Shown here: positions 10,006 to 53,300 of the stretch, in pieces
Numbering within the stretch: position 1 is the first letter of the stretch
How the letters are laid out: every line of letters begins with the position of its first letter
Origin: Acidimicrobiales bacterium
Lineage (GTDB): Bacteria; Actinomycetota; Acidimicrobiia; Acidimicrobiales; CAIXPF01
DNA length: 64,000 nucleotides
Assembly: GCA_038255145.1 (NCBI GenBank)
Contig: JBBSLP010000001.1
Location: 3,682 to 67,681 of the forward strand
Direction of reading: 5' to 3'
The notes under the pieces: model-generated
The model's database searches: none
Told to the model about the DNA's origin: nothing
What the model saw: only the letters and a program-made list of their open reading frames with translations
Position numbers and translations under genes: made by a program

Positions 10006-11241
10006 TCAGGGTGCCGAGGACCCGAGGGCGGCGGCGGCGAAGCGCCCCACGTCGAGCAGGGCATGGTCGGCCCACCGGGTGCCGACGAGCTGCACGCCCA
10101 CGGGCATGCGCGCCGGGCCTCGGGCCCCGGGCAGGGACAGCGCCGGCACCCGCAGCAGGGTCCAGACCTTGTTGAAGGCGGGATCCCCGGTGCTGTCCAG
10201 GCCCAGGGGGGCCTCGCCGGGGGCCGACGGTGTGAGCAGGGCATCGAGGTCGAGACGGGCCAGGGTGGCAGCGTAGGCGGCCCGCCCGGCCACCGCATCC
10301 CGTTGGGCGGCGCCGTAGGCCTCGGGACTGACCAGGGCGCGGGCCTCGATGATGGCGGCCAACCTGTCCGACAGCAGGTCGGGGTGGGCCGCGTGCTCCC
10401 AGGCCAGGCTGGCGCCGATCTCGGCCGCCATGATGGTGTCGTGGGCGGCGCCGAGGGGGCCGAGCGCACCGATCAGGTCGACGTCGACGACCTCGGCCCC
10501 GGCGGCGGCCAGGGATGATGCGGCCATCTCCAGTGCGGTGACGGTGGACATCTCGGCCGCCGGCCATTGATGGCTGCGGTACCGCCCGATGCGGGGAGCG
10601 GGCCGATCCGCCCCACCGCGGCTGGCGGGGGGCTCGGCCGGCGGGCCGGGCGGGGCCAGGGCGGCGAGCACGGCGGCCACGTCGTCCACCGTGGTGCCGT
10701 ACCAGCCCAGGGTGTCGAAGGAGGGGGCCAGGGGGTGCACCCCGGTCAGGGCGACCAGGTCGAAGGTGGGCTTGAAGGCCACCACCCCGCAGAACGAGCC
10801 CGGCCTGATGACCGAGCCCCCGGTCTGGGTGCCGAAGGCGACGCGCACCATGCCCGCGGCCACTGCGGCGGCCGAACCGCTCGACGAGCCGCCGGGGGTG
10901 CGGGTGGGGTCGTGGGGGTTGGTGGTGGGGCCGGGGCGGAAGAAGGCGAACTCGGTGGTCACCGTCTTGCCCACCACCACGGCGCCGGCGGCCCGGGCCA
11001 GGGCCACGGCCGCGGCATCGCTGCGGGGCCGGTGCCCGGCGTAGATGGCCGAACCCTTCTCGGTGGGCAGGTCGGCGGTGTCGATGATGTCCTTGACGCC
11101 CAGGGTGAAGCCGTTCAGCGACCCGGCCGGGGCCCCGGCCATGGCCGCCCGCACCTCGTCGTCGGCGCGCCGGCTGACCCAGGCGGCCACGGTCGGCTCC
11201 CGCTCGGCGGTGATGGCCAGCTCGGCCTCGAGGCGGTCCAT
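10006..11241 (-). CDS. Amidase (amidase-signature family)
   Basis: GVKDIIDTADLPTEKGS...GGSSSGSAAAVAAGMVRVAFGTQTGGSVIRPGSFCG is the AS signature with the Ser-cisSer-Lys context. The start is taken at the internal ATG (MDRLEAELA); the ORF track extends to 11379. Confidence 0.85.
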   Translation of the reverse strand: MDRLEAELAITAEREPTVAAWVSRRADDEVRAAMAGAPAGSLNGFTLGVKDIIDTADLPTEKGSAIYAGHRPRSDAAAVALARAAGAVVVGKTVTTEFAFFRPGPTTNPHDPTRTPGGSSSGSAAAVAAGMVRVAFGTQTGGSVIRPGSFCGVVAFKPTFDLVALTGVHPLAPSFDTLGWYGTTVDDVAAVLAALAPPGPPAEPPASRGGADRPAPRIGRYRSHQWPAAEMSTVTALEMAASSLAAAGAEVVDVDLIGALGPLGAAHDTIMAAEIGASLAWEHAAHPDLLSDRLAAIIEARALVSPEAYGAAQRDAVAGRAAYAATLARLDLDALLTPSAPGEAPLGLDSTGDPAFNKVWTLLRVPALSLPGARGPARMPVGVQLVGTRWADHALLDVGRFAAAALGSSAP

Positions 11242-11399
11242 GTCGACGGTGGTCACCCCCCCATCCCAGCGCGTCGCGGCCACCCGCGCCCGGGCTGGAG
11301 CGATGACGGCTCGATGAAGGGGTCCGTGAACCCGACGGCACCGGTGGGCCAGACTCCGCCCCCGGCCGCAGCGCGGCACGAGGACGCAGGGAGGCGACG

Positions 11400-12855: not shown

Positions 12856-12941
12856 CGGCCACCTCGGACCTTCCGGGGGGGATCGTCAACCGCCACGGTC
12901 GAGGATCTTCCCCGGTCGCGACGACCGCCGCCGGATCTACG

Positions 12942-13361
12942 TCACGAGCCGCGAGGTGGCGGATCACCCAACGACCAGATGCGGACGTTGCCGTGTGCGG
13001 CGGCGAGGGCGCCGAGATCATCGGGGTCGGCGGTGGCGATGACCGCTCCGCCCAACCGGATGGCCGTCGCCACCACGATGGCGTCAACCGCCGAGCCCGT
13101 CCCGGCGCGGCTACGGAGGCGACCGGCCAGGCGGGCGACCGGGACACTGAGCGGCACGACCAGAGCGGCGAAACGGACGAGGCGATCGATGGTCGCGTCC
13201 GATCCATCACCCCGGTAGACCTCGGCAAGCACCACGATCGGAACCACCGGGCGTTGACCGGCTCGGGCCGCGATGCGGCTGATGGCCTGCGCCCGCAGGC
13301 TCGCCGATCCTCGTTCACGGGGATGAGCCAAGGCGTTCACCGCCTCGGCATCGAGGATCAG
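12942..13361 (-). CDS. PIN-domain (VapC-like) toxin
   Basis: LILDAEAV...VLAEVYRG...SAVDAIVVATAIRLGGAVIATADPDDL carries the four acidic PIN positions. The first Asp lies upstream of the track start (GTG 13340). The only in-frame start candidate upstream of it is CTG at 13361, which overlaps the antitoxin stop as CTGA. Confidence 0.6.
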   Translation of the reverse strand: MILDAEAVNALAHPRERGSASLRAQAISRIAARAGQRPVVPIVVLAEVYRGDGSDATIDRLVRFAALVVPLSVPVARLAGRLRSRAGTGSAVDAIVVATAIRLGGAVIATADPDDLGALAAAHGNVRIWSLGDPPPRGS

Positions 13362-13573
13362 CTGGCCTGCCAGAACGCCTCCGCCTCGGCCAACAGGGCC
13401 TCGGGGATGGGGCCGGTCTCCTCAGCCAACTCGTCGAGCAGGTTCGACATCTCGACGTTGCCCAGGCGAGCCTCGATGGCGCGGACGACGAAGTCCTCGA
13501 CACCAGCCTCGCCCGCGGCGACGACCACGGCGTCGGCCAATGCGACCGGGATGCGCACCACCCTGCTTGCCAT
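13358..13573 (-). CDS. Ribbon-helix-helix-type antitoxin
   Basis: 71 aa: MASRVVRIPVALADAVVVAAGEAGVEDFVVRAIEARL... (N-terminal beta-strand plus helices). Sits immediately upstream of and overlapping the PIN gene. Confidence 0.55.
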   Translation of the reverse strand: MASRVVRIPVALADAVVVAAGEAGVEDFVVRAIEARLGNVEMSNLLDELAEETGPIPEALLAEAEAFWQAS

Positions 13574-13642
13574 GAGCGAAGCCTACGAGCCGGGAGCCCG
13601 ACGACCCAGCACCTTGCTAGGGCCGTCGCTGTCCGGCTGCGG

Positions 13643-14515
13643 TCAGTTGACGAAGAGGCGTTCGAGGTCGTCGACGAGGGCCCGGGCCCACAGGTGGCCG
13701 AAGCCGGGCCACAGGTTGGCGTCCACCACGTGGACGCGGCCGGCCTTGACCGCAGGGATGGCCTGGTAGAGGGGGCTGGCCGCCACCTCCTCGTAGGCGG
13801 CCCGGGGCATGCCCTCGGATCCGGTCGCCTCCACCAGCCAGTCGGCGTCGATCTCGGGGAGGCGCTCCAGGCTCTCCTTGTTGACCGACGCGTCGGGGCC
13901 CACCACGGGCTGGGCCCGCCACGGCACCCCGGGCACCCGGGTGGCGGCCTCGAGCACGGCCACCATGGCCGGCGTCACCGGCACCACGGTCTGGTGGGCC
14001 AGGGCCATGCCCAACCTGTCGCCGACCTCGTTCCACAACCCGGCCCGACCGACGCGGGCCAGGCCGTGGCAGGCGGCCACCAGGGGCTCGGAGGCGGCGG
14101 CCAGGGCGGTGACCGTCCGTTCGAGGACGACGGCGGACGACGCCACCGCCTCGACCCCGGGCAGGCCGGCCCAGGGGTGGGTGGTGTCGACCACGACGAT
14201 CGGTCGGCCGAGGTCGATCATGGTGGGCCAGCCCTCGGGCGCCACCTGCCAACGGACCTGGCCGGGGTCCACGACGAACCCCGCCCCGGCCGCGGCCACG
14301 CCGAAGCCCACGGGCCCGGCGAGCATGCCCGCGAACCAGCCCGACAGGAAGACGGCCCCCGCTGGTGCCGGCCAGCCCTCGGCGACCTGGTCGGCATGCG
14401 TGGCCCGCAACCGGGGGGCGTCGCCGGCCGCCAGGTCGGCCAGGGTGAGCGTGACGTCACCATGGGCGGTGCCGCCGTCGTGGTCGAAGTAGGTGGCAGG
14501 TGGGCGCCCAGCCAC
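13643..14515 (-). pseudogene. Chimeric ORF: FhuF-like (ferric-siderophore reductase-like) N-terminal two thirds fused to the C-terminal about 83 aa of an iron-siderophore periplasmic binding protein
   Basis: C-terminal DASVNKESLERLPEIDADWLV...YQAIPAVKAGRVHVVDANLWPGFGHLWARALVDDLERLF looks like an SBP C-terminus. The upstream part (FLSGWFAGMLAGPVGFGVAAAG...LARVGRAGLWNEVGDRLG) looks FhuF-like but has no Cys-cluster C-terminus. A further coding-like N-terminal piece (STAPELVLALDAPDAAAWLGAHL, from ATG 14580) lies in another frame. Confidence 0.4.
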
Positions 14516-41296: not shown

Positions 41297-41319
41297 AATT
41301 GCCTCATAACCCTGCTAAC

Positions 41320-42525
41320 ATGGCCCACATGGCGGCCGGCGAAGACCTCGACATCGAGGCGTGGATCATGACGTTGGCCGCCGTCGACGAAGACGAGATC
41401 CGCCGCCTCGGCGTACGGCAACTGGCGTTGGACGCCGCCCGCCTGGTCAACGCTGCGTCCGCGTTCGCCGCGCTCACCAGCGACGCGCTCGACCGCAGCG
41501 ACGAATGGGCCGCGGGCGGGGCGACATCGGCGGCCCAGTGGCTGGCCGCCCGCACCGGGAGCGCCCCACGCGTCCACCGGGGTCGGATCCGAGACGGGAA
41601 GGCCCTGCGCCTGCTGCCCTCGCTGGCCCCACCGGCCCGGGCGGGGACCCTGTCTGCCGAGCACGTGCGCTCAGTGTCAGCGTGCGTGGCCAAACACCCG
41701 ACCCTGGCTGTCGAGGACGCGGCGGCCCTGGTCGGCCAGGCGCTCGAGCTCGACGCGCCGGCCTACGCCATCGCCACCCGCCGGTGGACTGAACAAGCTG
41801 ACAACGCCGCTGAACTGCCTGGATCTACTCCTGATCCCCACTCCGAGCTCTTCCACGCCACCACGGCCGACGACTGCGGTGAACTGCAGGGGACCTTCGC
41901 CCCCGATGACAACGCCATCCTCGCCGCCGGCATCCAGGCCGGGTTCGACCGCCTCCTCCGCGCCGCCCATGATGGCGACCCCGCCCTCGCCGGCAAGTCC
42001 GCCTCCGCTCTGCGAGCCATGGCGCTCGTCGACCTCGTGGCCCAGTCCATGCGACGCGAACCGTCCGAACGCTCAGTGCCGGACAGGTACCGGGTTGCGG
42101 TGACCGTGCCCTACGACGTGGCCAGTGAGCCGCCCATGGCGACGTGTGACGCCACCATGTTCCGGGTCGTGCTCAACGCTGACGGTGAGGTTCTCGACGT
42201 CGGGCGGGACACCCCGCGATGGCCCCGTGGTGTTCGTCGGGCTGTCACCATCCGTGACCAGGGGTGCATCTTCCCCGGCTGCGATCGCCCACCAGGGCAT
42301 TGCGACATCCACCACTGTCGACCCTGGGAACACGGCGGCGAGACCAAGGTCGACAACGGCGCTCTGCTGTGTCGAAGACATCACACCTTCCTCCACAAAG
42401 AGAGATGGTCCATCGAGTTCCATGGTCGACGGCCACAGGTCCACCGGCCGGACGGCAGCGTGTTCACCATCGTGCCCTGGCGTGCCGACGCGCCCGGTGA
42501 CGGCCCGAACGAGGAGGCCGCATGA
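41320..42525 (+). CDS. DUF222-domain HNH endonuclease (13E12-repeat-like family)
   Basis: N-terminal DUF222-like region. C-terminal HNH: IRDQGCIFPGCDRPPGHCDIHHCRPWEHGGETKVDNGALLCRRHHTFLH. Possible alternative leaderless start at ATG 41329. Confidence 0.85.
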   Translation: MAHMAAGEDLDIEAWIMTLAAVDEDEIRRLGVRQLALDAARLVNAASAFAALTSDALDRSDEWAAGGATSAAQWLAARTGSAPRVHRGRIRDGKALRLLPSLAPPARAGTLSAEHVRSVSACVAKHPTLAVEDAAALVGQALELDAPAYAIATRRWTEQADNAAELPGSTPDPHSELFHATTADDCGELQGTFAPDDNAILAAGIQAGFDRLLRAAHDGDPALAGKSASALRAMALVDLVAQSMRREPSERSVPDRYRVAVTVPYDVASEPPMATCDATMFRVVLNADGEVLDVGRDTPRWPRGVRRAVTIRDQGCIFPGCDRPPGHCDIHHCRPWEHGGETKVDNGALLCRRHHTFLHKERWSIEFHGRRPQVHRPDGSVFTIVPWRADAPGDGPNEEAA

Positions 42526-42681: not shown

Positions 42682-43368
42682 TCAGGCGCCGATGGCCTGC
42701 AACAGGTGCTCGGAGGGAGCGATGGCGCCGAAGACGCCGCCCTGCATGGTGACCATCTTGAGGGCGGCTTCGTAGTTGCCCTTGTCGGTGGCTCCGGTGC
42801 AGTCGGTCAGCAGCAGGCACTCGTAGCCCCGGTCGTTGGCGTCACGCATGGTCGTGTGCACGCACACGTCGGTGGTGATGCCGGTGAAGACCAGGTGGGT
42901 GATGCCCGCCGTGCGCAACAACAGGTCGAGGTCGGTGGCGTAGAAGGACCCCTTGCCGGGCTTGTCGATGATGAGCTCGCCGTCGATGGGGGCGACCTCG
43001 GGCACGATCTCCCAGCCCGGCTCCCCCCGTACGAGGATGCGCCCACAGGCACTGACGTCACCGATGCCGGCGTTGATGCGCTTGGAGCGCCACAGCTTGT
43101 TGGGCGGGCAGTCCGACAGGTCGGGCCGGTGCCCTTCACGGGTGTGGATGATGGTCCACCCCTCGTTGCGGGCCGCGTCCAGCACCCGGGCGGTGGGCTC
43201 GAGCCCGGCCCGGGTCAGGGACAGGTCGTAACCCATCGAATCCACGTAGCCACCAGGCCCGCAGAAGTCGACCTGCCAGTCGATGAGCACCAGGGCTGTC
43301 CGGGCGGGATCGATGGGACCGTCGTAGGGCCAGGGGTAGGGGTTGGCGTCGACGACGCGCTCGGTCAT
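42682..43368 (-). CDS. Isochorismatase-family cysteine hydrolase (BiuH/RutB-like amidohydrolase)
   Basis: Catalytic Asp (LVLIDWQVDF), Lys (IIDKPGKGSFY) and Cys (FTGITTDVCVHTT) contexts are all present. Confidence 0.8.
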   Translation of the reverse strand: MTERVVDANPYPWPYDGPIDPARTALVLIDWQVDFCGPGGYVDSMGYDLSLTRAGLEPTARVLDAARNEGWTIIHTREGHRPDLSDCPPNKLWRSKRINAGIGDVSACGRILVRGEPGWEIVPEVAPIDGELIIDKPGKGSFYATDLDLLLRTAGITHLVFTGITTDVCVHTTMRDANDRGYECLLLTDCTGATDKGNYEAALKMVTMQGGVFGAIAPSEHLLQAIGA

Positions 43369-44012
43369 GGCTGCTCCCGGGTCTGCAGGGCGTTGGGCAG
43401 GTCAGCGTGAGGTTGGAGGAGGGCAAGGGCGGCCAGCAGCTCGGTACTGGTGCCGATGGCGCCGAAGATGCCGCCCGACATGGTGATGCTGGACAGCGCC
43501 CCGGCTGCGGTGTCGTCACCGAAGGGGGCGACGGCGTCGACCAGGGTCAGGCACTCGTAGCCCCGGTCGTTGGCCCCCCGCAGGGTGCACTCGACGGTGG
43601 CCTCGTAGCCGTAGCCGACCAGGACCAGCCGGTCGAGGCCCCGACGGCGCAGCTCGTGGTCGAGCGTGCTGCCGAAGAAGCCGTCCATGCCCACGGCTGC
43701 GACCACGACGTCGGCCACGCCAGCGATGTCGAGCGGGTCGGCCTCCGGGGTACCGGGCAGCGGGGGCAGGGCGGGGCGGGGGCCCCGGTCCAGCACCACT
43801 GTGGGGGCCAGATGGGTCACGACGACGATCTGGCCACCGGTGGCCCGCACCGCGGCCGCCACCCGGTCGATGACCGCAGCCACGGCGTCGACGTGGAGCG
43901 AGCGGCCCCGCCAGGCCGGCTGGGCCCCGGCCACCACCAGAGCGGTGCGTCGGGGGTCCAGCCGGCCGTCATAGGGCCACGGATAAGGATCGGTGCGATC
44001 GACCGTGTTCAT
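43365..44012 (-). CDS. Isochorismatase-like paralogue lacking the catalytic triad
   Basis: Shares DPYPWPYDG...RTALV and RGANDRGYEC...MSGGIFGAI with its neighbour. The triad positions read VVAGAQ (Asp lost), VAAVGMDGFF (Lys lost) and GYGYEATVECT (Cys replaced by Thr). ATGA overlap with the downstream active copy. Confidence 0.75.
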   Translation of the reverse strand: MNTVDRTDPYPWPYDGRLDPRRTALVVAGAQPAWRGRSLHVDAVAAVIDRVAAAVRATGGQIVVVTHLAPTVVLDRGPRPALPPLPGTPEADPLDIAGVADVVVAAVGMDGFFGSTLDHELRRRGLDRLVLVGYGYEATVECTLRGANDRGYECLTLVDAVAPFGDDTAAGALSSITMSGGIFGAIGTSTELLAALALLQPHADLPNALQTREQP

Positions 44013-44036: not shown

Positions 44037-45206
44037 TCAGGACTTGGGGATGTTGCCGACGACGCCCTTGATGAAGTAGCCCATCGAGTCGACGGCGGCG
44101 GCGTCCAACGTGGTCCCGGCAGGCACGACGGGCTTGCCGTCCTGGCCGTCGATGGGCCCGGTGAACACCGACTGGGTCTTGGAGAAGCCGGCCTTGGCCG
44201 TGTCCACGGCCTTCTTCACGTCGGCGGGCACCTTGGAGCCGAACTCGGACTCGACGAAGGGGTTCTCGCCCGAGGCGAAGCCGGCCCGGTAGTTGGCGTT
44301 GTACTTCGAACCGGTGAAGTCCCCGTCGATGGCCGTCTTCACGATGTCGTTGTAGAGGGCGTCCCACGACCACTCCGAACCGGCGATCCAGCCGTTGGGG
44401 GCCAGGCTGGAGGCGTCGGCGTGGTAGCCGACGATCATGGCCCCGGCGGCCTCGGCCGCCTTGACCACGGTGGCCTGGCAGTCCTGGTGCTGGGTCAGTA
44501 CGTCGACCCCCTGGCCCAACAGGCTGGCGGCGGCATCGGCCTGCTTGGCCGGGTCACACCAGTTGCTGGTGTTGACGGTGATGGTCTCAGCCGCAGGGTT
44601 GACCGACCTGGCGCCCAACTCGAAGGCGTTGATGTTGGCCAGGGTCTGGGGGATGGGGAAGGCGTACACGTAGCCCAGCTTGTTGGACTTCGTCATCTTC
44701 CCGGCCACGATCCCCGCCAGGTACACCGGCTCGTACACGGTGCCGAAGAAGGTGCCCTCGTTGGGGGTGATGGTCCCGCTGATGGTGTTGCCCTGCTGCA
44801 CCACGACCACGTCGGGGTGGGCGGCAGCGACCTGCACGGCGGCGTCGAGGTGGCCGTAGCTGGTGGCGAAGAGGACCTTGGCCCCCTTGGCGATCATGCC
44901 CTCCATGACCCGGGCGGCCTCGTCGGTCTCGGGCACGTTCTCGGCGGTGATGACCTCGATGTCGGGGAAGGCCTTCTTCACGGCCTGCGAACCGGCGTAG
45001 GCGGCCTGGTTGTAGCCATAGTCGTCCTTGGGGCCGACGAAGATGAAGCCGACGGCCTCGGACCCCTCGCCGGGGGCGGCGGTCGCGCCGTCCGCACCGG
45101 TGGTGGCCGAGGCGGCCCCGCCGTCGTTGCTGCTGCAGGCGCCGGCCACCAGGGCCAGTCCCGCGATCATCGCCACGGCGGCGCGTCTGCGAAGGGTGTT
45201 GCTCAC
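44037..45206 (-). CDS. BMP-family (PnrA-like) ABC transporter substrate-binding lipoprotein
   Basis: MSNTLRRRAAVAMIAGLALVAGACSSN has a lipobox. GFIFVGPKDDYGYNQAAYAGS is typical of BMP/Med family proteins. Confidence 0.85.
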   Translation of the reverse strand: MSNTLRRRAAVAMIAGLALVAGACSSNDGGAASATTGADGATAAPGEGSEAVGFIFVGPKDDYGYNQAAYAGSQAVKKAFPDIEVITAENVPETDEAARVMEGMIAKGAKVLFATSYGHLDAAVQVAAAHPDVVVVQQGNTISGTITPNEGTFFGTVYEPVYLAGIVAGKMTKSNKLGYVYAFPIPQTLANINAFELGARSVNPAAETITVNTSNWCDPAKQADAAASLLGQGVDVLTQHQDCQATVVKAAEAAGAMIVGYHADASSLAPNGWIAGSEWSWDALYNDIVKTAIDGDFTGSKYNANYRAGFASGENPFVESEFGSKVPADVKKAVDTAKAGFSKTQSVFTGPIDGQDGKPVVPAGTTLDAAAVDSMGYFIKGVVGNIPKS

Positions 45207-45320: not shown

Positions 45321-46238
45321 CTAGCCGAAGACGGCTTTGAGGCCTTCGGGGACCTGGGCGGCCCGCTTGCGGCCCAGGGCCACGAGCACGACGATGATGG
45401 CCAGGTAGGGGATCGACGCCAGGGCGAACTGGTTGTTCAGCACGGGGATGTCGACGTTGCGGGCCTGCAGGGCCGGGGACAGGGCCAGAGCGGCTCCGAA
45501 CAGGTAGGCCCCGGCCGCCACCTTGAGGGGCTGGCGGGCGGCGAAGATGACCACGGCGCAGGCGATGAAACCCCGGCCCTGGGTCATGTTCTCGAACCAC
45601 GAGTTGGCGTAGGCCGTGGACAGCTGGGCACCGCCGATGCCGGCGAGCATGCCGCCGAGGATGACAGCGATGAACTGCACCCGCAGGGCGGGGTGGCCGT
45701 AGGTCTCCAACACCTCGCTGCGCTCCCCCGCCCCCCGGATCAACATGCCCCAGCGGCTGCGGTACAGCACCCACCAGGCCGCCGGTACCAACAGGTACGA
45801 CAGGTACGTCAGCGGGTCGTGCTGGAAGAACACCTCGCCGATGAAGGGGATCTTGGACAGGCCGGGGATGTTCCAGACCGTGAACGAGTTCACCGTCCTG
45901 GACACGTAGGCCGCCCCGTAGAGCGAGGTCAGGCCCAGACCGAGGAACACCACCACCAGGCCCGTGGCCAGCTGGTTCGACTTGCGGGTGAGCACGAACC
46001 AGGCGTGGATGGCGGCCATCATGCCGCCGCCCACGGCGGCGCCGATGAGGCCCACCCAGGGGTTGCCGGCCTCGGCCGTCACCGCGTAGCCGGCCAGGGC
46101 GCCCACGAGCATGGAGCCCTCGGTGCCCAGGTTGACCACTCCGGCCGATTCGGAGAAGGACTCCCCGATGGCCGCGTACATGATGCAGGTTCCGCCGGAG
46201 ATGGCCCCGGCCATCACCTCGGTGACCAGGCTGCTCAT
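45321..46238 (-). CDS. ABC transporter permease (BMP-type system)
   Basis: Real start at ATG 46238 ([16 protein letters not shown]...), with an ATGA overlap to the upstream permease. The 902-aa track ORF is a read-through of shadow frames. Confidence 0.85.
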   Translation of the reverse strand: MSSLVTEVMAGAISGGTCIMYAAIGESFSESAGVVNLGTEGSMLVGALAGYAVTAEAGNPWVGLIGAAVGGGMMAAIHAWFVLTRKSNQLATGLVVVFLGLGLTSLYGAAYVSRTVNSFTVWNIPGLSKIPFIGEVFFQHDPLTYLSYLLVPAAWWVLYRSRWGMLIRGAGERSEVLETYGHPALRVQFIAVILGGMLAGIGGAQLSTAYANSWFENMTQGRGFIACAVVIFAARQPLKVAAGAYLFGAALALSPALQARNVDIPVLNNQFALASIPYLAIIVVLVALGRKRAAQVPEGLKAVFG

Positions 46239-47293
46239 CGAACCCCCTCCTTCTTCGCCGTCCAACCGAACACGGCCAGCAGCACCAGGGCCATCAGCAC
46301 GTTCACCGTGGCCGCCGGCAGCTGGGAATCGAGCTGCAGGCTGTCGCCCGAGATGGAGATCGCCGCCAGCACCAGGGCGGCCACCGCCACCTGGATGGGC
46401 TTGTGACGGGCCAGCCAGCTGGCCAGGAAGGCGATGTAGCCGTAGCTGGCCAGGAAGCCCGGGCGCAGCTTGAACTCGGCCCCGGCCAGCTGGGTGAAGC
46501 CACCGAGACCGGCCAGGGCGCCACCCACGGCCATGGCGCTGGCCAGCAGCACGGCCACCTTGAAGCCCGAGCGGCGGGCGGCCTCGGCGTTGCCCCCCAC
46601 GACCTGGAGCTTGAAGCCCCACCGGGTCGAGCGCAGCACCCACCAGATGACGCCCGTGGCCACGACGGCCAGCAGGATGCCGGCGTGCACGGTGGCCTTG
46701 CCCAGGCTGAGCAGGGGCAGCCGCTCGGCCACGGGCAGGGCGGCCGACGTGGGCTGACCTCCGCCCTTGACGTCCTTCCACGGGTCGTAGATGAGGAAGA
46801 ACATGACGTTGAGGGCCACGTAGTTGAGCAGCAGGGTGGTGACGGCCTCGTTGATGCCCACCTTGACCCGCAGCAGGCCGGCGATCCCCGCCCAGATGGC
46901 GCCGCCACAAGCGGCGGCGACGGCCATGAGCACCAGGGTCATGGTCCCGGGCCAGGCCCCGTCCGACAGCCGGGCCACCCAGGCCGCGGCCACCCCGCCG
47001 ATGATGAGCTGGCCCTCGCCCCCCACGTTGACCAGGCCGGCCCGGGCGGGCACGGCCACGGCCAGGGCGGCGAGGATGAGGGGGGTGGCCTTGACGACGA
47101 TGCCCGACAGGGCGGTGTCCCTGGTCAGGCTCTCGAACATGGAGCTGTAGGCGTCGATGGGGTTGGCGCCCTTGGTCCACATGAGGACACCGAAGATGAC
47201 GAGGGCGCCGAAGATGGCCGCCACCCAGCGGCCGATGGCGATGATGGCGGGGTGGACCTCGGTCTTGGCCGGGGCGAAGGTGGCCGTGGTCAT
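46235..47293 (-). CDS. ABC transporter permease (BMP-type system)
   Basis: 352 aa, multi-TM. ATGA overlap with the ATPase gene. Confidence 0.85.
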
Positions 47294-48918
47294 GACGCCA
47301 CCGCGGCGCTGGTGGCGTCGGCCATGACGGCCGGGTCCATGGTCGCGGCCGCAGCCCGGCCTTCGAGCATGAGGCGTCCGATCTGGTAGCGGTCGGCATC
47401 GGCCGGGGTGACGATGCCGGCGATCTCCCCCTCGTGGAGCACGACGATGCGGTCCGACAGGGACAGCAGCTCGTCGATGTCCTCGGAGATGACCATGACC
47501 CCCGCCCCGTTGGCCCGCTGCTCGAGCAGCAGCTCCTGGGTGCGGCGGGTGGTGGCGATGTCGAGGCCCCGGCTGGGATAGGCCGCCACGACCAGGGCGG
47601 TCTGGCTGCCCAGGGCCCGCACGAGCATGACCCGCTGGATGTTGCCGCCCGACAGGGTGGCCACGACGCGGTCCGGCGCGGCCACGCCGAGCTGGGTGGC
47701 GGCATCGAGCTCGGCCAGGTGCTGGCGGGCCTTGCGCCAGTCGATGCCCAGGCCCTTCTTGTAGGCGGGCAGGTCACCGAGGGCGATGTGGGCCACCACG
47801 CTGAGCCCGGGGACGACGGCTTCGGTGATGGGGTCCTGGGGCACGCCGACGCCACCGAGGTCGATGGCTTCCTGCACGGCGCCGTGGCCCAGCTCCTTGC
47901 CGCCGATGCGCACCTGGCCGGCCGATGGCTGGGCCAGGCCCAACGCCACCTCGTACAGCTCGCGCTGGCCGTTGCCCGACACCCCGGCCACCCCCACCAG
48001 CTCACCGGGGCGGATCTCGAGGTCGACACCCTTGAGGCAGCTCTGGGGCCGCCCCGTGGTGGCCACCCCGCACAGCACGAGGGCCGGGGCCTCGTCGCTC
48101 TCCGGCGGCGCCACCCGGTCGGCGGGGATGGGCTTGACCGAACGGCCGACCATGGCCTCGATCAGCTCCTCGTCCGTCAGGTCCCGGGGGTCGACCCCAC
48201 CGAGGATGACCTTGCCCCCCCGCAGGATGGTGCAGCGGTCGGCGATGGCCCGGGCCTCGTTGAGCTTGTGGGTGATGATGACCACCGACAGGCCCTGGCG
48301 ACGCAGCTCGTCCACCGCTTCGAGCAGGGAGTCGACCTCCTGGGGGGCGAGCACGCTGGTGGGCTCGTCGAGGATGACCAGGCGGGCGCCGGCCATGAGC
48401 ACCTTGAGGATCTCGACCCGCTGGCGCTCGCCGATGGCCAGGTCACGCACGTAGGCGTTGGGGTCCACCTGCATGCCGTAGCGGGTGGCGGCCTCGGAGA
48501 TGGAGGCGGCCAGGCCCTTGCGGTCGAGGCGGGGGCCGTGCAGCTCGAGGGCCAGGGCGATGTTCTCGGTCACCGTGAAGGCGTTGATCAACCGCATGTC
48601 CTGGAAGACCATGCCGATGCCGTTGGCCCGGGCCACGGCCGGCGAGGTGATCTCCACCTGCTGCAGGTGGATGAGGAAGGTGCCGTCGTCGGCCACGTAG
48701 GTGCCGTACATCATCTTCATGAGGGTGCTCTTGCCGGCGCCGTTCTCGCCGAGCACGGCGTGCACCTCCCCCGCGGCCACCGCGATGTCGACGGCGTCGT
48801 TGGCCACCAGGTCGCCGAAGCGCTTGGTGATGCCCTTGCCCTCGAGGCGGTTCCCCGACGGCCTGTCCTCGTCCGTTGCGGTGGCGGCCGGTGGACCGGT
48901 CGCCGAGGTGAACGTCAT
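47290..48918 (-). CDS. ABC transporter ATP-binding protein, duplicated ATPase domains
   Basis: First-domain Walker [10 protein letters not shown], a second-domain P-loop-like segment GVSGNGQRE, and an LSGGNIQRV signature. 542 aa. Confidence 0.9.
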
Positions 48919-48940: not shown

Positions 48941-48983
48941 GGTTCACGGTTTGCGGTTCACGGTTTGCGGGGTCACGGTTTGC
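48941..48983. repeat. 14/15-bp tandem repeat x3 (GGTTCACGGTTTGC)
   Basis: Units at 48941-48954, 48955-48968 and 48969-48983 (the third reads GGGGTCACGGTTTGC). The third unit contains the gntR stop codon. The other two fill the 54-bp spacer before the ATPase start. Confidence 0.9.
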
Positions 48984-49686
48984 GGGGGTCGGCGGCCATG
49001 CGGGCCAGGGCCAGCAGCACCCGCTGCTCGACCACGGCCAGGGATTGCGCCACGTGGGCGTCGAAGCGCTGCTCGGCCATGACGAGGTCACCGTCGAGGA
49101 CGGCGTCGAGGATGCCGAGGTGCTCGACGATGGTCTGCTCGATGCGCTCGACGGTGAGGAAGTCCTGCATGCGCACGACGCGGATGCGCTCGTTGAGCTG
49201 GCGCAGCAGGTCGACGAGCACGGGGTTGCCGGCCGACTCGGCCAGGGAGAGGTGGAAGGACTCGTCGACGAGCACGAAGCCGGGGTTGGGCTCCTGCTCC
49301 TCGTCGGCCAGGGCCCGCCACTCGTCGCGCAGGGCGGCCAGCAGCACGGCGTCGTGCACCGAACGGGTACGGCCGGGGCGGTGCAGGGCCTGCAGCTCGA
49401 GGGCGATGCGCACCTCGTACAGGTGGCGCATGCTGTCGACGTCGGGGGCCAGGGCCAGGTAGCCCCCGTCCTGGGCCCGCCGCACCAGGCCCTCGGCGTG
49501 GAGGCGCAACAGGGCCTCGCGCACCGGGGTGCGGGACACCCCGAGCTCGGCGGCCAGCCGCTCCTCACCGAGGCGGACGTTGAGGCCGAAGTCGCCGACG
49601 AGCAGCCGGCGCTTCAGATCCGCGTACGCCCGATCGCTGCGCAGCACCCCATCCGTTGTGTGCGACCCCGTATACACGCAGCTCAC
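48973..49686 (-). CDS. GntR family transcriptional regulator (FadR/FCD type)
   Basis: RLGEERLAAELGVSRTPVREALLRLHAEGLV is the wHTH; the C-terminal part is helical and FCD-like. Confidence 0.85.
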   Translation of the reverse strand: MSCVYTGSHTTDGVLRSDRAYADLKRRLLVGDFGLNVRLGEERLAAELGVSRTPVREALLRLHAEGLVRRAQDGGYLALAPDVDSMRHLYEVRIALELQALHRPGRTRSVHDAVLLAALRDEWRALADEEQEPNPGFVLVDESFHLSLAESAGNPVLVDLLRQLNERIRVVRMQDFLTVERIEQTIVEHLGILDAVLDGDLVMAEQRFDAHVAQSLAVVEQRVLLALARMAADPRKP

Positions 49687-49811: not shown

Positions 49812-50210
49812 TCAGACGGGAGGACGGCCGTCGAGCCAGGAGACGTGGGCGTCGACCACCTGCCAGCCCCGCTCCGTCCGCCCCCAGGTCTGCGTCTGGC
49901 GACCCACCACCCCGGGGTGGCCATCGGGCAGGAACTCCACGGTGACCACGGCGACATCACATCCGAAGGTGGTCACCACCCGGTGGCGCAGCCGGCGGGG
50001 CAGGGTCTGGAAGGCCAGGGCGGCGCGGTGGGCCCGGATGGCCTCGATCCCCTGTTGGCGACCCTCGGGTCCGAAGCGCACCACCAGGGGGCTGTCCCAG
50101 AACAGGGCATCCAGGGTCTCGAGGTCGTTGGCCACCAGTGCGGCCTCGTAGCGGTCGAAGACCTCGACCACCTCGGCCACCACGTCGGGCAGGTCCACCT
50201 CACCGAGCAT
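49812..50210 (-). CDS. AtzH-like / HpxZ-like NTF2-fold protein (DUF3225)
   Basis: From the internal ATG: MLGEVDLPDVVAEVVEVFDRYEAALVANDLETLDALFWDSPLVVRFGPEG...GRQTQTWGRTERGWQVVDAHVS matches the family pattern as I remember it. Confidence 0.65.
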   Translation of the reverse strand: MLGEVDLPDVVAEVVEVFDRYEAALVANDLETLDALFWDSPLVVRFGPEGRQQGIEAIRAHRAALAFQTLPRRLRHRVVTTFGCDVAVVTVEFLPDGHPGVVGRQTQTWGRTERGWQVVDAHVSWLDGRPPV

Positions 50211-50354
50211 GGCGGCAGCGTAGTTAGGCGCTCCCACCCCGCCCCGATAGCGCGGTGTCCGTATCATTGAGTGGTCGTTGACACACTTAGAGAGAGATTC
50301 GGTAGTCTTTTGACCAGCACGTCGACAGGACGTGTCCGCATCTCCGGAGGCTCC

Positions 50355-53300
50355 ATGCTCAGGCGGCAACTCATCGGAGCGGCGTTCACCGTTGCGCTCG
50401 TCGTGTCCGGCCTCGTGTCGACGGCCACACCCGGCGGGGCCACGGACCTGACGCCCGTGGTACCGGCCCGCCTGTTCGACTCCCGCCCCGGCGCCGGCAC
50501 CGTGGACGGCCAGGGCCTGCCCGCCAGTCCCGTCGGCCCCGGCCAGGCCGTCACCATCGCGGCCCGGGGACGGGCCGACATCCCCGCCGACGCCGGTGCC
50601 GTCATCCTGACCTTGACCACCACCAACGTCAGCACCTGGACCTACCTCACCGTGTGGGACGGCGCCACGGCCAGGCCCTACGCCTCCCAGGCCGTGCCCA
50701 CCGCCGGCACCACCCAGGCCACCACCGCCATCACCCAGCTGGCCAGCGACGGCACCTTCGCCGTCTACAACGCCGCGGGCACCACCGACCTCGTCATCGA
50801 CGTCGTCTCCTGGCTCCCCACCACCAGCCCCGACATCGTCTCCATCGCTCCCGCCCGCCTCCTCGACACCCGCCCCGGCGCCATCACCGTCGACGGCCAG
50901 GGATCACCCGCCACCCCGGTGGCCGAGGCCCAGACCATGACCATCCCCGCGGCGGGCCGGGGTGGGGTCCCGGCGGGGGCCACGGCCATGTTGGCCACGG
51001 TGACCGTGCTCGACGCCTCGGCCAGCGGCTTCGTCACCCTGTGGGACGGCATCCTGCCCCGGCCCGGCGCCTCGACCGCCAACCCCACCCCGGGCACCGT
51101 GGCCACGACCATGGCCGTCATCGGCCTGAACCCCAGTGGCAACTTCGCCGTGTACAACGGGCTGGGCACGGTCGACGTCATCGTCGACGTCTTCGGCTAC
51201 CTCCCCCTCACCCCCGGCCTCGTCCCCGTGGCCCCGGCCCGCCTCCTCGACACGAGGCCCGGCGCCTGGACCATCGACGGCCAGGGCCTGCCCGGTGCCC
51301 CGGTCGGACCCACCGGCGCCGTGGCCGTGCAGGCCACCGGCCGCGGCGGCGTGCCCCCCGTCGCCGGCACGGTCATGGTCACCCTCACCTCGACCGCAGC
51401 CACCGAACCCACCTACCTGACGGCGTGGAACGGCGTCGGCGCCCACCCCTACGCCTCGGTCGCCAACCCCACCCCGGGCCAGACCTCGGCCACCACCATC
51501 GTCGTCGAGCTCGACGAGCAGGGGGCGTTCAGCGTCTTCAACCAGGCGGGCAGCACCGATGTCATCGTGGACGTCGTCGCCTGGTCCATGCCCCCCGGCC
51601 CCCAGTACGACGACCTCGACAGCAGCGGTCTACCCGTCGTCGGTCCGGCCAGTGCAGGCGACGGTCCCTTCACCGTGGTGCTGGGCCTCACCTCGGACCA
51701 GGCCGGCCTCACCGCCTTCGCCCAGGCCGTCAGCGATCCGACCTCCCCCATCTACGGCCAGTACCTCACCCTCGACCAGGCCATCGCCACCTACGGTGCG
51801 TCGGGCTCCACCGGCGCGGCCGTGGCCAGCTACTTCGGCGGCCTCAGCGTCACCCCCACCTTCGACCCCACCGGCACCACGGCCACGGTCGAGCTCACCC
51901 TGGCCCAGCTGAGCACCGTGTTCGGCACCACGTTCAGCAACTACCAGGTCAGCCAGGTCGGCTGTCAGTTCGCCCAGATGTTCCCCGACCAGGCTCCGAC
52001 GCTGCCCGCGGGGTTGAGCGGCGCCGTCGACCGGGTCCACGGCCTGGCTCCCCTCACCGACAACATCGGCCCGTGCGCGGCGCTGGACATCACCTCGGCC
52101 GGCCTCGCCACCAGCACCGCGGCCGCCGTGAACGGTGACCCGACGCTGTCGGCCCAGACCATCGCCACCCAGACCGCCTTCGGTGGCACCACCACCCGGA
52201 CCGGCGACGTCGAAGCCGGCCCGGCGACGGGGTTGTCCAGCCCGACGGCGCCGTGCCCCGATGCTGTGGCCGTCGAGGCCGACGGCACCCCCATGGGTCT
52301 GATGCCCAACCAGATGCTCGACGCCTACGGCCTCGACACCCTGCACAAGGGGGGCATCACCGGTGCCGGCATCCGCCTGGCCGTGGTCAACACCGCTCCG
52401 GCCATCGACTCGGACCTGGCCACCTTCCGCGCCTGCTTCGGGCTCCAGGGCTCCACCGAGCCCAACGTCATCCCGGTCCCGACGGGCGGTCCCCTGCCCG
52501 CCCCCGACGACGAGCCCACCCTCGACCTCAGCATCCTGGCCTTCGCCGCTCCCGACCTCGCGCACCTCGACCAGTACGTGGTGACACCGGATCCCGACGA
52601 CAACGGCGTGACCATGCTGCGCCTGGTCCAGGCGCCACTGGACACGTCCCAGACCGCCCACGTGGGGCAGGCCCCCCACGTGGTGTCCATCAGCTACGGG
52701 GCCTGTGAGTCACTGACGCTGGGCGGCCTGGGCGGGGCCTGGCCGCTGGTCGACATGATCGACCAGACGTTGGCCATCGGTGCCGCCGCCGGCATCACCT
52801 ACGTCGCCTCGGCCGGCGACAGCGGCTCGTTGGCCTGCTCCCGCCTGGTGGATGCCTTCCCCTACCCCGCCGACGTGCTGACCCCGACGCCGGCCATGCC
52901 GTCGACCCAGACGTGGATCACCTCGGTGGGCGGTACCAACATCACCCTCGATGCCGACAACGAGATCGCCTCGTCCGGTGTGTGGAACGACATGGCCTGG
53001 CCCACGCCCATGAACACCGCGGCCGGCGGCGGCGGGCAGAGCGCCATGGTCCCCCGGCCCTGGTACCAGCAGGGTGGTGCCTTCCCCGTGGGCGGAGGAC
53101 GTCTCACCCCCGACATCAGCGCCTTCTCCGACCCCCTCCCCGGTTACGTCATCTACTGCACGGTGCCGGGGACCAGGGCATGCAACGGCGCCGGCTGGCA
53201 GAACGTCGCCGGCACCAGTGCCGCCGCCTCCCTGGTGGCCAGTGGGCTGGCCCTCGTCGACCAGTCGCGCCTGAACGAGTCCCTGCCCGCCCTGGGCTTC

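Follow-up and report, generated by a model that had tools for sequence, protein, structure and literature searches.

Introduction

Biuret and triuret are fertiliser impurities as well as intermediates in the oxidation of s-triazines and purines, and the hydrolases BiuH and TrtA are textbook enzymes of their breakdown. In contig JBBSLP010000001.1 of an Acidimicrobiales bacterium, within the 64,000-nucleotide stretch analysed here (the window, at its full length), a gene for biuret hydrolase BiuH overlaps an upstream paralogue in which the catalytic residues have been replaced. What would a catalytically dead copy do next to a live one, and why would it be kept? We conclude with moderate confidence that the product of the upstream gene is a non-catalytic paralogue, conserved and kept by selection, and a partner subunit of BiuH, with which it is obligately paired in an actinobacterial operon for the uptake and breakdown of biuret or triuret; it is probably a helper subunit of BiuH that has gone undescribed.

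Results

An intact BiuH and a catalytically dead paralogue

The two genes share an ATGA overlap (Table 1), and 6 nt 5' of the BiuH start codon, still within the dead gene near its 3' end, is a Shine-Dalgarno-like GGGAG motif. BLASTP aligned their products almost end to end at 32% identity (E = 2e-30); both matched Pfam family PF00857 (66.1 bits for the dead copy and 144 bits for BiuH, with a cutoff of 27), and the motifs PYPWPYDG, ANDRGYEC and M-x-GG-[VI]-FGA are common to both. An earlier inspection of the letters alone (the sequence-only reading) had described two genes overlapping by ATGA, similar from end to end and sharing these motifs, the downstream copy keeping an Asp-Lys-Cys triad and the upstream one having it replaced. 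All of this was borne out, the state of both triads by the alignments that follow.

The downstream product matched the NCBIfam equivalog NF050097 over its full length (1-221 of 221; 411.2 bits, cutoff 370) and is ~80% identical (411 bits) to the BiuH of Rhodococcus sp. Mel (RhdBiuH, PDB 6xjm). Its catalytic triad, D30/K136/C169, aligns with D36/K142/C175 of the Rhizobium enzyme, and the substrate-binding residues K139, F35 and Q209 (Lys145, Phe41 and Gln215 in Rhizobium) are all kept, V212 too. By score, identity and residue content this is an ordinary, bona fide BiuH, predicted to hydrolyse biuret to allophanate. RhdBiuH, its nearest assayed relative, hydrolyses biuret and, weakly, triuret (PMC7948467).

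At the triad columns the upstream product carries G29, A106 and T139, that is, Asp to Gly, Lys to Ala and Cys to Thr, as obtained with HMMER alignments to 6xjm and to the Rhizobium structure 6azo and with MAFFT family alignments. It also has no equivalent of the substrate-binding Lys145, and it is without ~10 residues of the mobile lid loop (BiuH 44-53) and ~23 residues that include BiuH helix alpha2. We extended the comparison to 100 dead-family sequences, comprising 44 unfused homologues and 4 fused domains from genome loci plus 52 fused proteins: Lys was present at neither Lys column in any of them, Cys occupied the Cys column in 2, and Asp was seen at the Asp column only in the N domains of 4 fusions, whose alignment is uncertain at that point. 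A triad kept at shifted positions, an outcome that would speak against the sequence-only reading, was rejected, none being found by family or structure alignment in the 100 homologues. Having lost the Asp, the Cys and both Lys residues as well as the lid, the protein is judged incapable of Cys-hydrolase chemistry.

The fold itself appears to be maintained. An AlphaFold2 (AF2) model built from a 120-sequence alignment reached a predicted local distance difference test (pLDDT) score of 92.9 and a predicted template modelling (pTM) score of 0.89, and its best Foldseek matches in the PDB were BiuH (template modelling score, TM, 0.77), RhdBiuH (0.76) and TrtA (0.79), with RutB falling inside the overall TM range of 0.72-0.79. 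Against NF050097 the dead copy scored 100.5 bits, short of the cutoff of 370, with good alignment only for the C-terminal half; it gave 96 bits to 6xjm versus 58 bits to 6xj4. The protein thus belongs to the isochorismatase-like hydrolase (IHL) superfamily, by its PF00857 score above cutoff and its predicted IHL fold. It falls outside BiuH by score, by triad and by the cross-subunit Gln, which is S179 instead, and outside TrtA too, since the E137 and I182 equivalents are kept but the triad and the Gln are gone and the N-terminus is of BiuH type.

In public databases, members of the dead family and their fusions are labelled "biuret amidohydrolase", "nicotinamidase-related amidase" or "cysteine hydrolase"; applied to proteins that, by alignment, have no nucleophile, such labels are a systematic mis-annotation.

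Distribution and selection of the dead family

A search of 5.8 billion proteins with the dead copy returned 790 matches at E<=1e-5, of which the top 120 are ~200 aa long, 50-64% identical and derived from metagenome-assembled genomes of Acidimicrobiales and Actinomycetes. A profile of the family, run against 1.84 billion representatives at 50% identity, retrieved 184 clusters at E<=1e-30. Taking one genome per GTDB species, 43 species had the paralogue unfused and 4 had it fused. Carriers are found in Acidimicrobiia, in Actinomycetes (Cellulomonas, Nocardioides, Microbacteriaceae, Demequinaceae, Microbispora, Streptomyces and Motilibacteraceae), in Egibacteraceae, in Gaiellaceae and in Solirubrobacterales, and intact frames of ~200 aa are maintained over four classes of Actinomycetota. 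When the dead protein was compared by tblastn with the plasmids of PLSDB, no match was obtained.

In five independent genome pairs the ratio of non-synonymous to synonymous changes per site (pN/pS) of the dead gene ranged from 0.23 to 0.55, with binomial p values against neutrality of 8e-13 to 8e-4, whereas the adjacent biuH gave 0.08-0.19, the dead gene being 2-4 times more relaxed. The dead gene is under purifying selection. It also evolves about three times faster, with a mean within-family Kimura distance of 0.99 versus 0.31 for BiuH, and at 90% identity the window copy forms a cluster of 1 member versus 252 for BiuH. In a neighbor-joining tree the dead sequences form a single clade with a long stem, nearer to BiuH (Kimura distance 1.4) than to TrtA (1.7), with an origin left unplaced by midpoint rooting. 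A lineage-specific or neutrally evolving copy had been the other outcome set against the sequence-only reading, and neither was observed, given the spread over classes and 184 clusters and p<=8e-4 in all five pairs.

Obligate pairing and recurrent fusion with BiuH

The same reading had proposed to look for the pair in other genomes. Contig ends excepted, a BiuH-type gene (367-472 bits to the BiuH of the window) lies directly 3' of the dead gene or domain in all 47 loci that carry it. The junctions are mostly 4-nt overlaps, with a few TGATG and the remainder gaps of 1-90 nt; of the 44 homologous pairs without fusion, the majority show a 4-nt overlap (ATGA, GTGA or TTGA).

Moreover, in four genomes (L030, L037, L038 and L044) the dead domain and BiuH lie in a single stop-free frame, and a search with one such genomic fusion yielded over 50 different metagenomic proteins, 400-480 aa in length, having the dead domain at the N-terminus and BiuH at the C-terminus. 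In the 52 fusion proteins we aligned, the two domains are separated by linkers of 32-83 aa, the C-terminal BiuH domain is intact in every case, and neither Lys nor Cys occupies a catalytic column in any of the N domains. Recurrent fusion of this kind provides independent support for co-assembly at a fixed stoichiometry.

A different arrangement was seen in P0359 (454 aa), where the dead-family domain is at the C-terminus and the N region resembles by eye an alpha/beta-hydrolase; this may be a further partner to which the family is fused, or two genes merged in the gene call.

Residues at the specificity positions

The active site of BiuH and TrtA is completed by a Gln (Q215 and Q202, respectively) that comes from the other subunit of a tight dimer; the depth to which it reaches is set by V218/I205 and D173/E160 and decides between biuret and triuret, and in the Q215A variant Km goes up more than 25-fold (PMC5806882, PMC7948467). 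In the dead family the corresponding loop reads S-G-G-I-F-G-A in 100 of 100 sequences, compared with Q-G-G-V in BiuH, so that Gln215 has become Ser and Val218 Ile; Asp173 of BiuH is replaced by Glu in 99 of the 100. The copy in the window carries this family signature as E137, S179 and I182. Alignment confirmed Glu and Ile at those two columns in TrtA-like proteins, and the family thus resembles TrtA at two of the specificity positions and BiuH in its N-terminus, whereas its residue in place of the Gln is unique. The best-kept stretches of the family are this S-G-G-I loop and helix alpha4 (ANDRGYECL), the latter nearly identical to that of BiuH. Within the subfamily to which the window copy belongs, Gln31, Trp34, Ser38 and His67 are conserved at >=90%.

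A loop of the form L-S-G-G-I-F-G-A was also encountered in P0484, a protein of 616 aa with a carbamate-kinase-like N region and an isochorismatase-like domain having a complete triad, meaning that the Ser/Ile loop exists in an apparently active enzyme as well.

Operon context and absence of trtA

The coordinates of the gene pair and of its neighbours are collected in Table 1. The operon runs in the order AtzH-like/TrtB, GntR, ABC (ATP-binding cassette) ATPase, two permeases, Bmp, dead paralogue and BiuH, and relatives are alike, usually followed by allophanate hydrolase (AtzF). ATGA overlaps join the ATPase to permease 1 (47290-47293) and permease 1 to permease 2 (46235-46238), so 4-nt overlaps chain most genes of this transporter-hydrolase operon. 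The true start of the AtzH-like gene is probably downstream of the listed TTG. Carboxybiuret decarboxylase TrtB has been assigned to the AtzH-like family, and the published triuret/biuret cluster consists of trtA, biuH, trtB, atzF, bmpA-nupABC and gntR (PMC7948467, PMC12625717); apart from the dead gene, the operon of the window corresponds to it.

Table 1. Genes and junction of the transporter-hydrolase operon in the window, in operon order.
Feature	Position	Strand	Basis
AtzH-like (SnoaL-fold) protein	49812..50369	-	PF11533, 147 bits, residues 57-180
GntR/FCD-family transcriptional regulator	48973..49686	-	PF00392, PF07729
ABC transporter ATPase, two ABC domains	47290..48918	-	Open reading frame; PF00005 in L001
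ABC permease 1	46235..47293	-	Open reading frame; PF02653 at the homologous position of L001
ABC permease 2; its start shares an ATGA with the stop of permease 1	45321..46238	-	Open reading frame, junction; PF02653 at the homologous position of L001
Bmp/PnrA-type ABC-transporter substrate-binding protein, directly 5' of the dead gene	44037..45206	-	PF02608, 130 bits
Catalytically dead BiuH paralogue, 215 aa, ATG start	43365..44012	-	Open reading frame and sequence
ATGA overlap (BiuH ATG, dead-gene TGA)	43365..43368	-	Sequence
Intact biuret hydrolase BiuH, 228 aa, ATG start	42682..43368	-	NF050097, 6xjm match, site table

Gene contexts were counted within +/-10 kb of the 47 dead-bearing loci and of 36 BiuH loci without the dead gene. 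The dead-bearing loci contain Bmp in 47, the ATPase in 42, GntR in 40, AtzF in 24 and a TrtB-like gene in 16 (the window among these 16), and contig ends apart the dead gene is always located between the Bmp binding-protein gene and biuH. TrtA-like genes are present in none of the 47 and in 20 of the 36 (Fisher p = 9e-10), although phylogeny and the pattern-based way in which loci were chosen both confound this contrast; one of these genes scored 317 bits to the TrtA structure 6xix. Dead-bearing and TrtA-bearing BiuH loci both occur within Acidimicrobiia. A TrtB-like gene requires a source of carboxybiuret, and its presence in the window and in 15 other dead-bearing loci was counted, with the TrtA contrast, in favour of the partner reading.

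Discussion

A proposed partner subunit of BiuH

Taken together, the invariable adjacency, the recurrent fusion and the selection on the dead gene make it likely that its product and BiuH form a complex of some kind. The sequence-only reading, which had proposed a heteromer in which the dead copy regulates or scaffolds, or alternatively a pseudoenzyme that binds substrate, is thereby supported, and either role may apply. We propose that the dead protein would assemble with BiuH as a hetero-oligomer and would act through the parts it keeps best, the interface helix alpha4 and the loop that in BiuH enters the active site of the neighbouring subunit.

Two versions of such an assembly can be considered. 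In the first (a), a canonical dead:BiuH dimer would place Ser and Ile, instead of Gln215 and Val218, at the far end of the pocket of BiuH, which may thereby be lengthened for a larger ureide such as triuret, the pair standing in for the absent TrtA. By analogy with Q215A such a dimer would cripple biuret hydrolysis, so this version makes sense only with a larger substrate such as triuret; it would account for the missing trtA and for the presence of a trtB-like gene, and it fits the conservation of alpha4 identical to that of BiuH and the exclusivity with TrtA. In the second (b), a dead2:BiuH2 assembly would leave BiuH dimers intact, with a dead dimer docked to them and offering a conserved, TrtA-like, non-catalytic pocket (Glu137 plus Ser179'/Ile182') that may bind substrate or product for regulation, hand-over or stabilisation. 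It fits the unadapted state of the paired BiuHs described below and the near-invariance of Glu137, which (a) would leave unexplained. We place (b) slightly ahead of (a). As for the more specific proposal that the dead paralogue is a specificity-switching subunit, inserting Ser179 and Ile182 through the canonical interface and so turning part of the BiuH pool into a hydrolase of triuret or a larger ureide, we regard it as tentative and, on balance, unlikely; if true, one catalytic gene with a dead copy would replace the BiuH and TrtA pair of other bacteria.

Several results weigh against a partner subunit, or against particular forms of it. The ATGA overlap was rejected as a special mark of a heteromer, being the junction style of the entire operon. 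In the AF2 model of the natural fusion P0128 (52-sequence alignment) both domains fold (pLDDT 89), with a pTM of 0.61 and a docking that is not confident. Helix alpha2, which the dead copy has lost, is one of the three dimer-interface helices of BiuH (PMC5806882). A comparison of paired with solo actinobacterial BiuHs yielded, at the thresholds applied, no residue that tells the two groups apart, and Gln215 and Val218 are invariant in the paired ones; with paired BiuHs unadapted in this way, BiuH:BiuH dimers would still matter, which weakens (a). The confounding of the TrtA contrast belongs on this side too. So do the algal and Paenibacillus fusions of BiuH with TrtA treated below, as they join domains that presumably each pair with their own kind, and fusion says nothing on which interface is used. 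RhdBiuH is active alone and crystallises as a homo-oligomer (PMC7948467), so a partner is dispensable for basic catalysis in that clade. Nocardia BiuHs are solo; that of Nocardia puris, which shares ~85% identity with RhdBiuH, has an NCS1 permease and not a dead paralogue before it.

The exact sequence of RhdBiuH (P0241), the crystallised "slow generalist", is recorded only on a contig of 1277 nt from Joint Genome Institute (JGI) sample 3300056388, in which a gene of at least 156 aa lies upstream, its stop overlapping the BiuH start by 4 nt. If this gene were the dead paralogue, the published kinetics of RhdBiuH would be those of an orphaned subunit.

Alternative explanations

The alternative that survives best, which we consider rather improbable, is a free-standing, non-catalytic ligand binder that makes no stable complex with BiuH, e.g. 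a cytoplasmic holder of biuret, triuret or allophanate between importer and hydrolases, or a co-sensor for GntR. The position of the dead gene directly after the Bmp binding-protein gene in 47 of 47 loci suits such a role, as does the unadapted state of the paired BiuHs. The former active-site pocket, moreover, is not random: Glu137 is nearly invariant, the four residues conserved in the window subfamily (Gln31, Trp34, Ser38 and His67) add to it, and in a dead:dead dimer Glu137, Ser179' and Ile182' would line one pocket. However, the lid loop that closes this pocket in BiuH and TrtA is deleted, the pocket residues other than Glu137 vary between subfamilies, and repeated fusion to BiuH is not expected of a stand-alone protein.

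Alternatively, the dead protein could be a pure stabiliser or chaperone of BiuH, with no ligand pocket and no effect on specificity, much as a small accessory subunit may serve folding or solubility alone; obligate adjacency and fusion would be expected of it. A precedent for a non-catalytic accessory subunit is AtzG, in the related cyanuric-acid pathway. There AtzE works as AtzEG (PMC7948467). Nevertheless, close relatives of this BiuH need no partner to be stable and active (PMC7948467, PMC5806882), and a scaffold leaves unexplained the invariant Ser179 and Ile182 and the near-invariant Glu137 at specificity positions, so we regard this explanation as improbable.

Still less probable in our view is a cryptic enzyme whose chemistry is new and does without Asp-Lys-Cys, for instance decarboxylation of carboxybiuret or allophanate by the conserved Glu. 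That Glu137 stays nearly invariant despite the loss of the neighbouring nucleophile is in keeping with this idea, and the 31 of 47 loci without a TrtB-like gene within 10 kb may have a vacant step to fill. The window, though, has a TrtB-like gene too; Glu137 is the only catalytic candidate kept in both subfamilies (His67 being kept in one); and the lid deletion together with the 2-4 times relaxed rate is typical of a catalysis that has been lost, not changed. Finally, a decaying, functionless biuH pseudogene, to which the loss of all catalytic residues, the faster evolution and the single-member 90% cluster might point, was rejected as next to impossible on the intact frames in four classes, pN/pS below 1, invariant motifs, fusions and confident AF2 fold.

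Comparison with known systems

The pair can be set beside the systems that it most resembles. With BiuH itself the dead copy shares the fold (TM 0.76-0.77), an N-terminus of the form PYPWPYDG-x8-AL, the alpha4 sequence ANDRGYECL and the GG-x-FGA loop; it differs in having none of D36, K142, K145 and C175, in the residues that replace Gln215 (Ser), Val218 (Ile) and Asp173 (Glu), and in the missing lid and alpha2. The published BiuHs, from Rhizobium leguminosarum 3841 (6azo) and RhdBiuH, are homotetramers for which no partner subunit has been described (PMC5806882, PMC7948467). The TrtA of Herbaspirillum sp. BH-1 (PDB 6xix/6xje) is likewise a BiuH paralogue encoded beside biuH in the same type of cluster, and it shares with the dead family the Glu (E160), the Ile (I205) and a structural TM of 0.75-0.79. 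TrtA, however, is an active enzyme that has the whole triad as well as the cross-subunit Gln. Both are missing from the dead family, whose N-terminus is of BiuH type.

Prozymes, the nearest functional parallel, are dead paralogues that heterodimerise with an active paralogue and control it, as in the AdoMetDC (S-adenosylmethionine decarboxylase) and deoxyhypusine synthase of trypanosomatids. Here too a dead paralogue is under selection, and the active site of its parent spans the dimer interface, so a partner could complete or alter a live site. The present case, a candidate of this type, differs in being bacterial, operon-encoded and often fused, and in that related BiuHs are active without a partner.

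A second type of fusion, with BiuH at the N-terminus and a TrtA-like domain at the C-terminus, was detected in P0181, P0171, P0231, P0212, P0164, P0149 and P0144. The hosts of such BiuH-TrtA fusions are the green algae Chlamydomonas (CHLRE_10g448500v5, P0181), Scenedesmus and Micractinium, the dinoflagellate Symbiodinium (annotated as "rutB"), Aureococcus, the haptophyte Diacronema and Paenibacillus (P0149), which suggests a putative fused triuret/biuret pathway in eukaryotic algae; P0199 and P0230 have an additional allophanate-hydrolase C-terminal domain (PF21986). Like the actinobacterial fusions, these proteins couple BiuH with another isochorismatase-like domain that belongs to its pathway, and they are of similar size. 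In them, though, both domains have Asp/Lys/Cys and the Gln, whereas the actinobacterial ones are dead(N)-BiuH(C).

Searches of the full-text literature returned nothing on a dead isochorismatase-like paralogue, on a partner subunit of BiuH or on dead-BiuH fusions, in agreement with the sequence-only reading, which knew of no description of this arrangement. The authors of the TrtA paper surveyed several hundred BiuH contexts, reported TrtA alone, and raised the question of how the position of the cross-dimer Gln sets biuret versus triuret specificity (PMC7948467). A dead paralogue spread through a phylum is a natural experiment on that question: the Gln and both residues that position it are altered, in a protein tied to BiuH and without TrtA in the loci examined. 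If it is indeed a subunit, then "BiuH" annotations in actinobacteria cover half of the enzyme, in vitro data from the lone subunit may misstate activity and substrate range, and the isochorismatase-like hydrolase superfamily would gain its first reported pseudoenzyme partner.

Other observations

No atzF follows the biuH of the window, as it does in 24 of the 47 related loci, and an HNH/DUF222-type gene (41299..42525, + strand) abuts the end of the operon; in L001 a DUF222 gene (12893..14047, - strand) lies immediately after atzF. This hints at a recurrent point of insertion or deletion at the end of the cluster. In L041 (Candidatus Manganitrophus), two partial isochorismatase-like frames that overlap each other (112 and 198 bits) are located at 10778..11374, 3' of a TrtA/BiuH-like gene, and have the look of a second hydrolase gene that was split or frameshifted.

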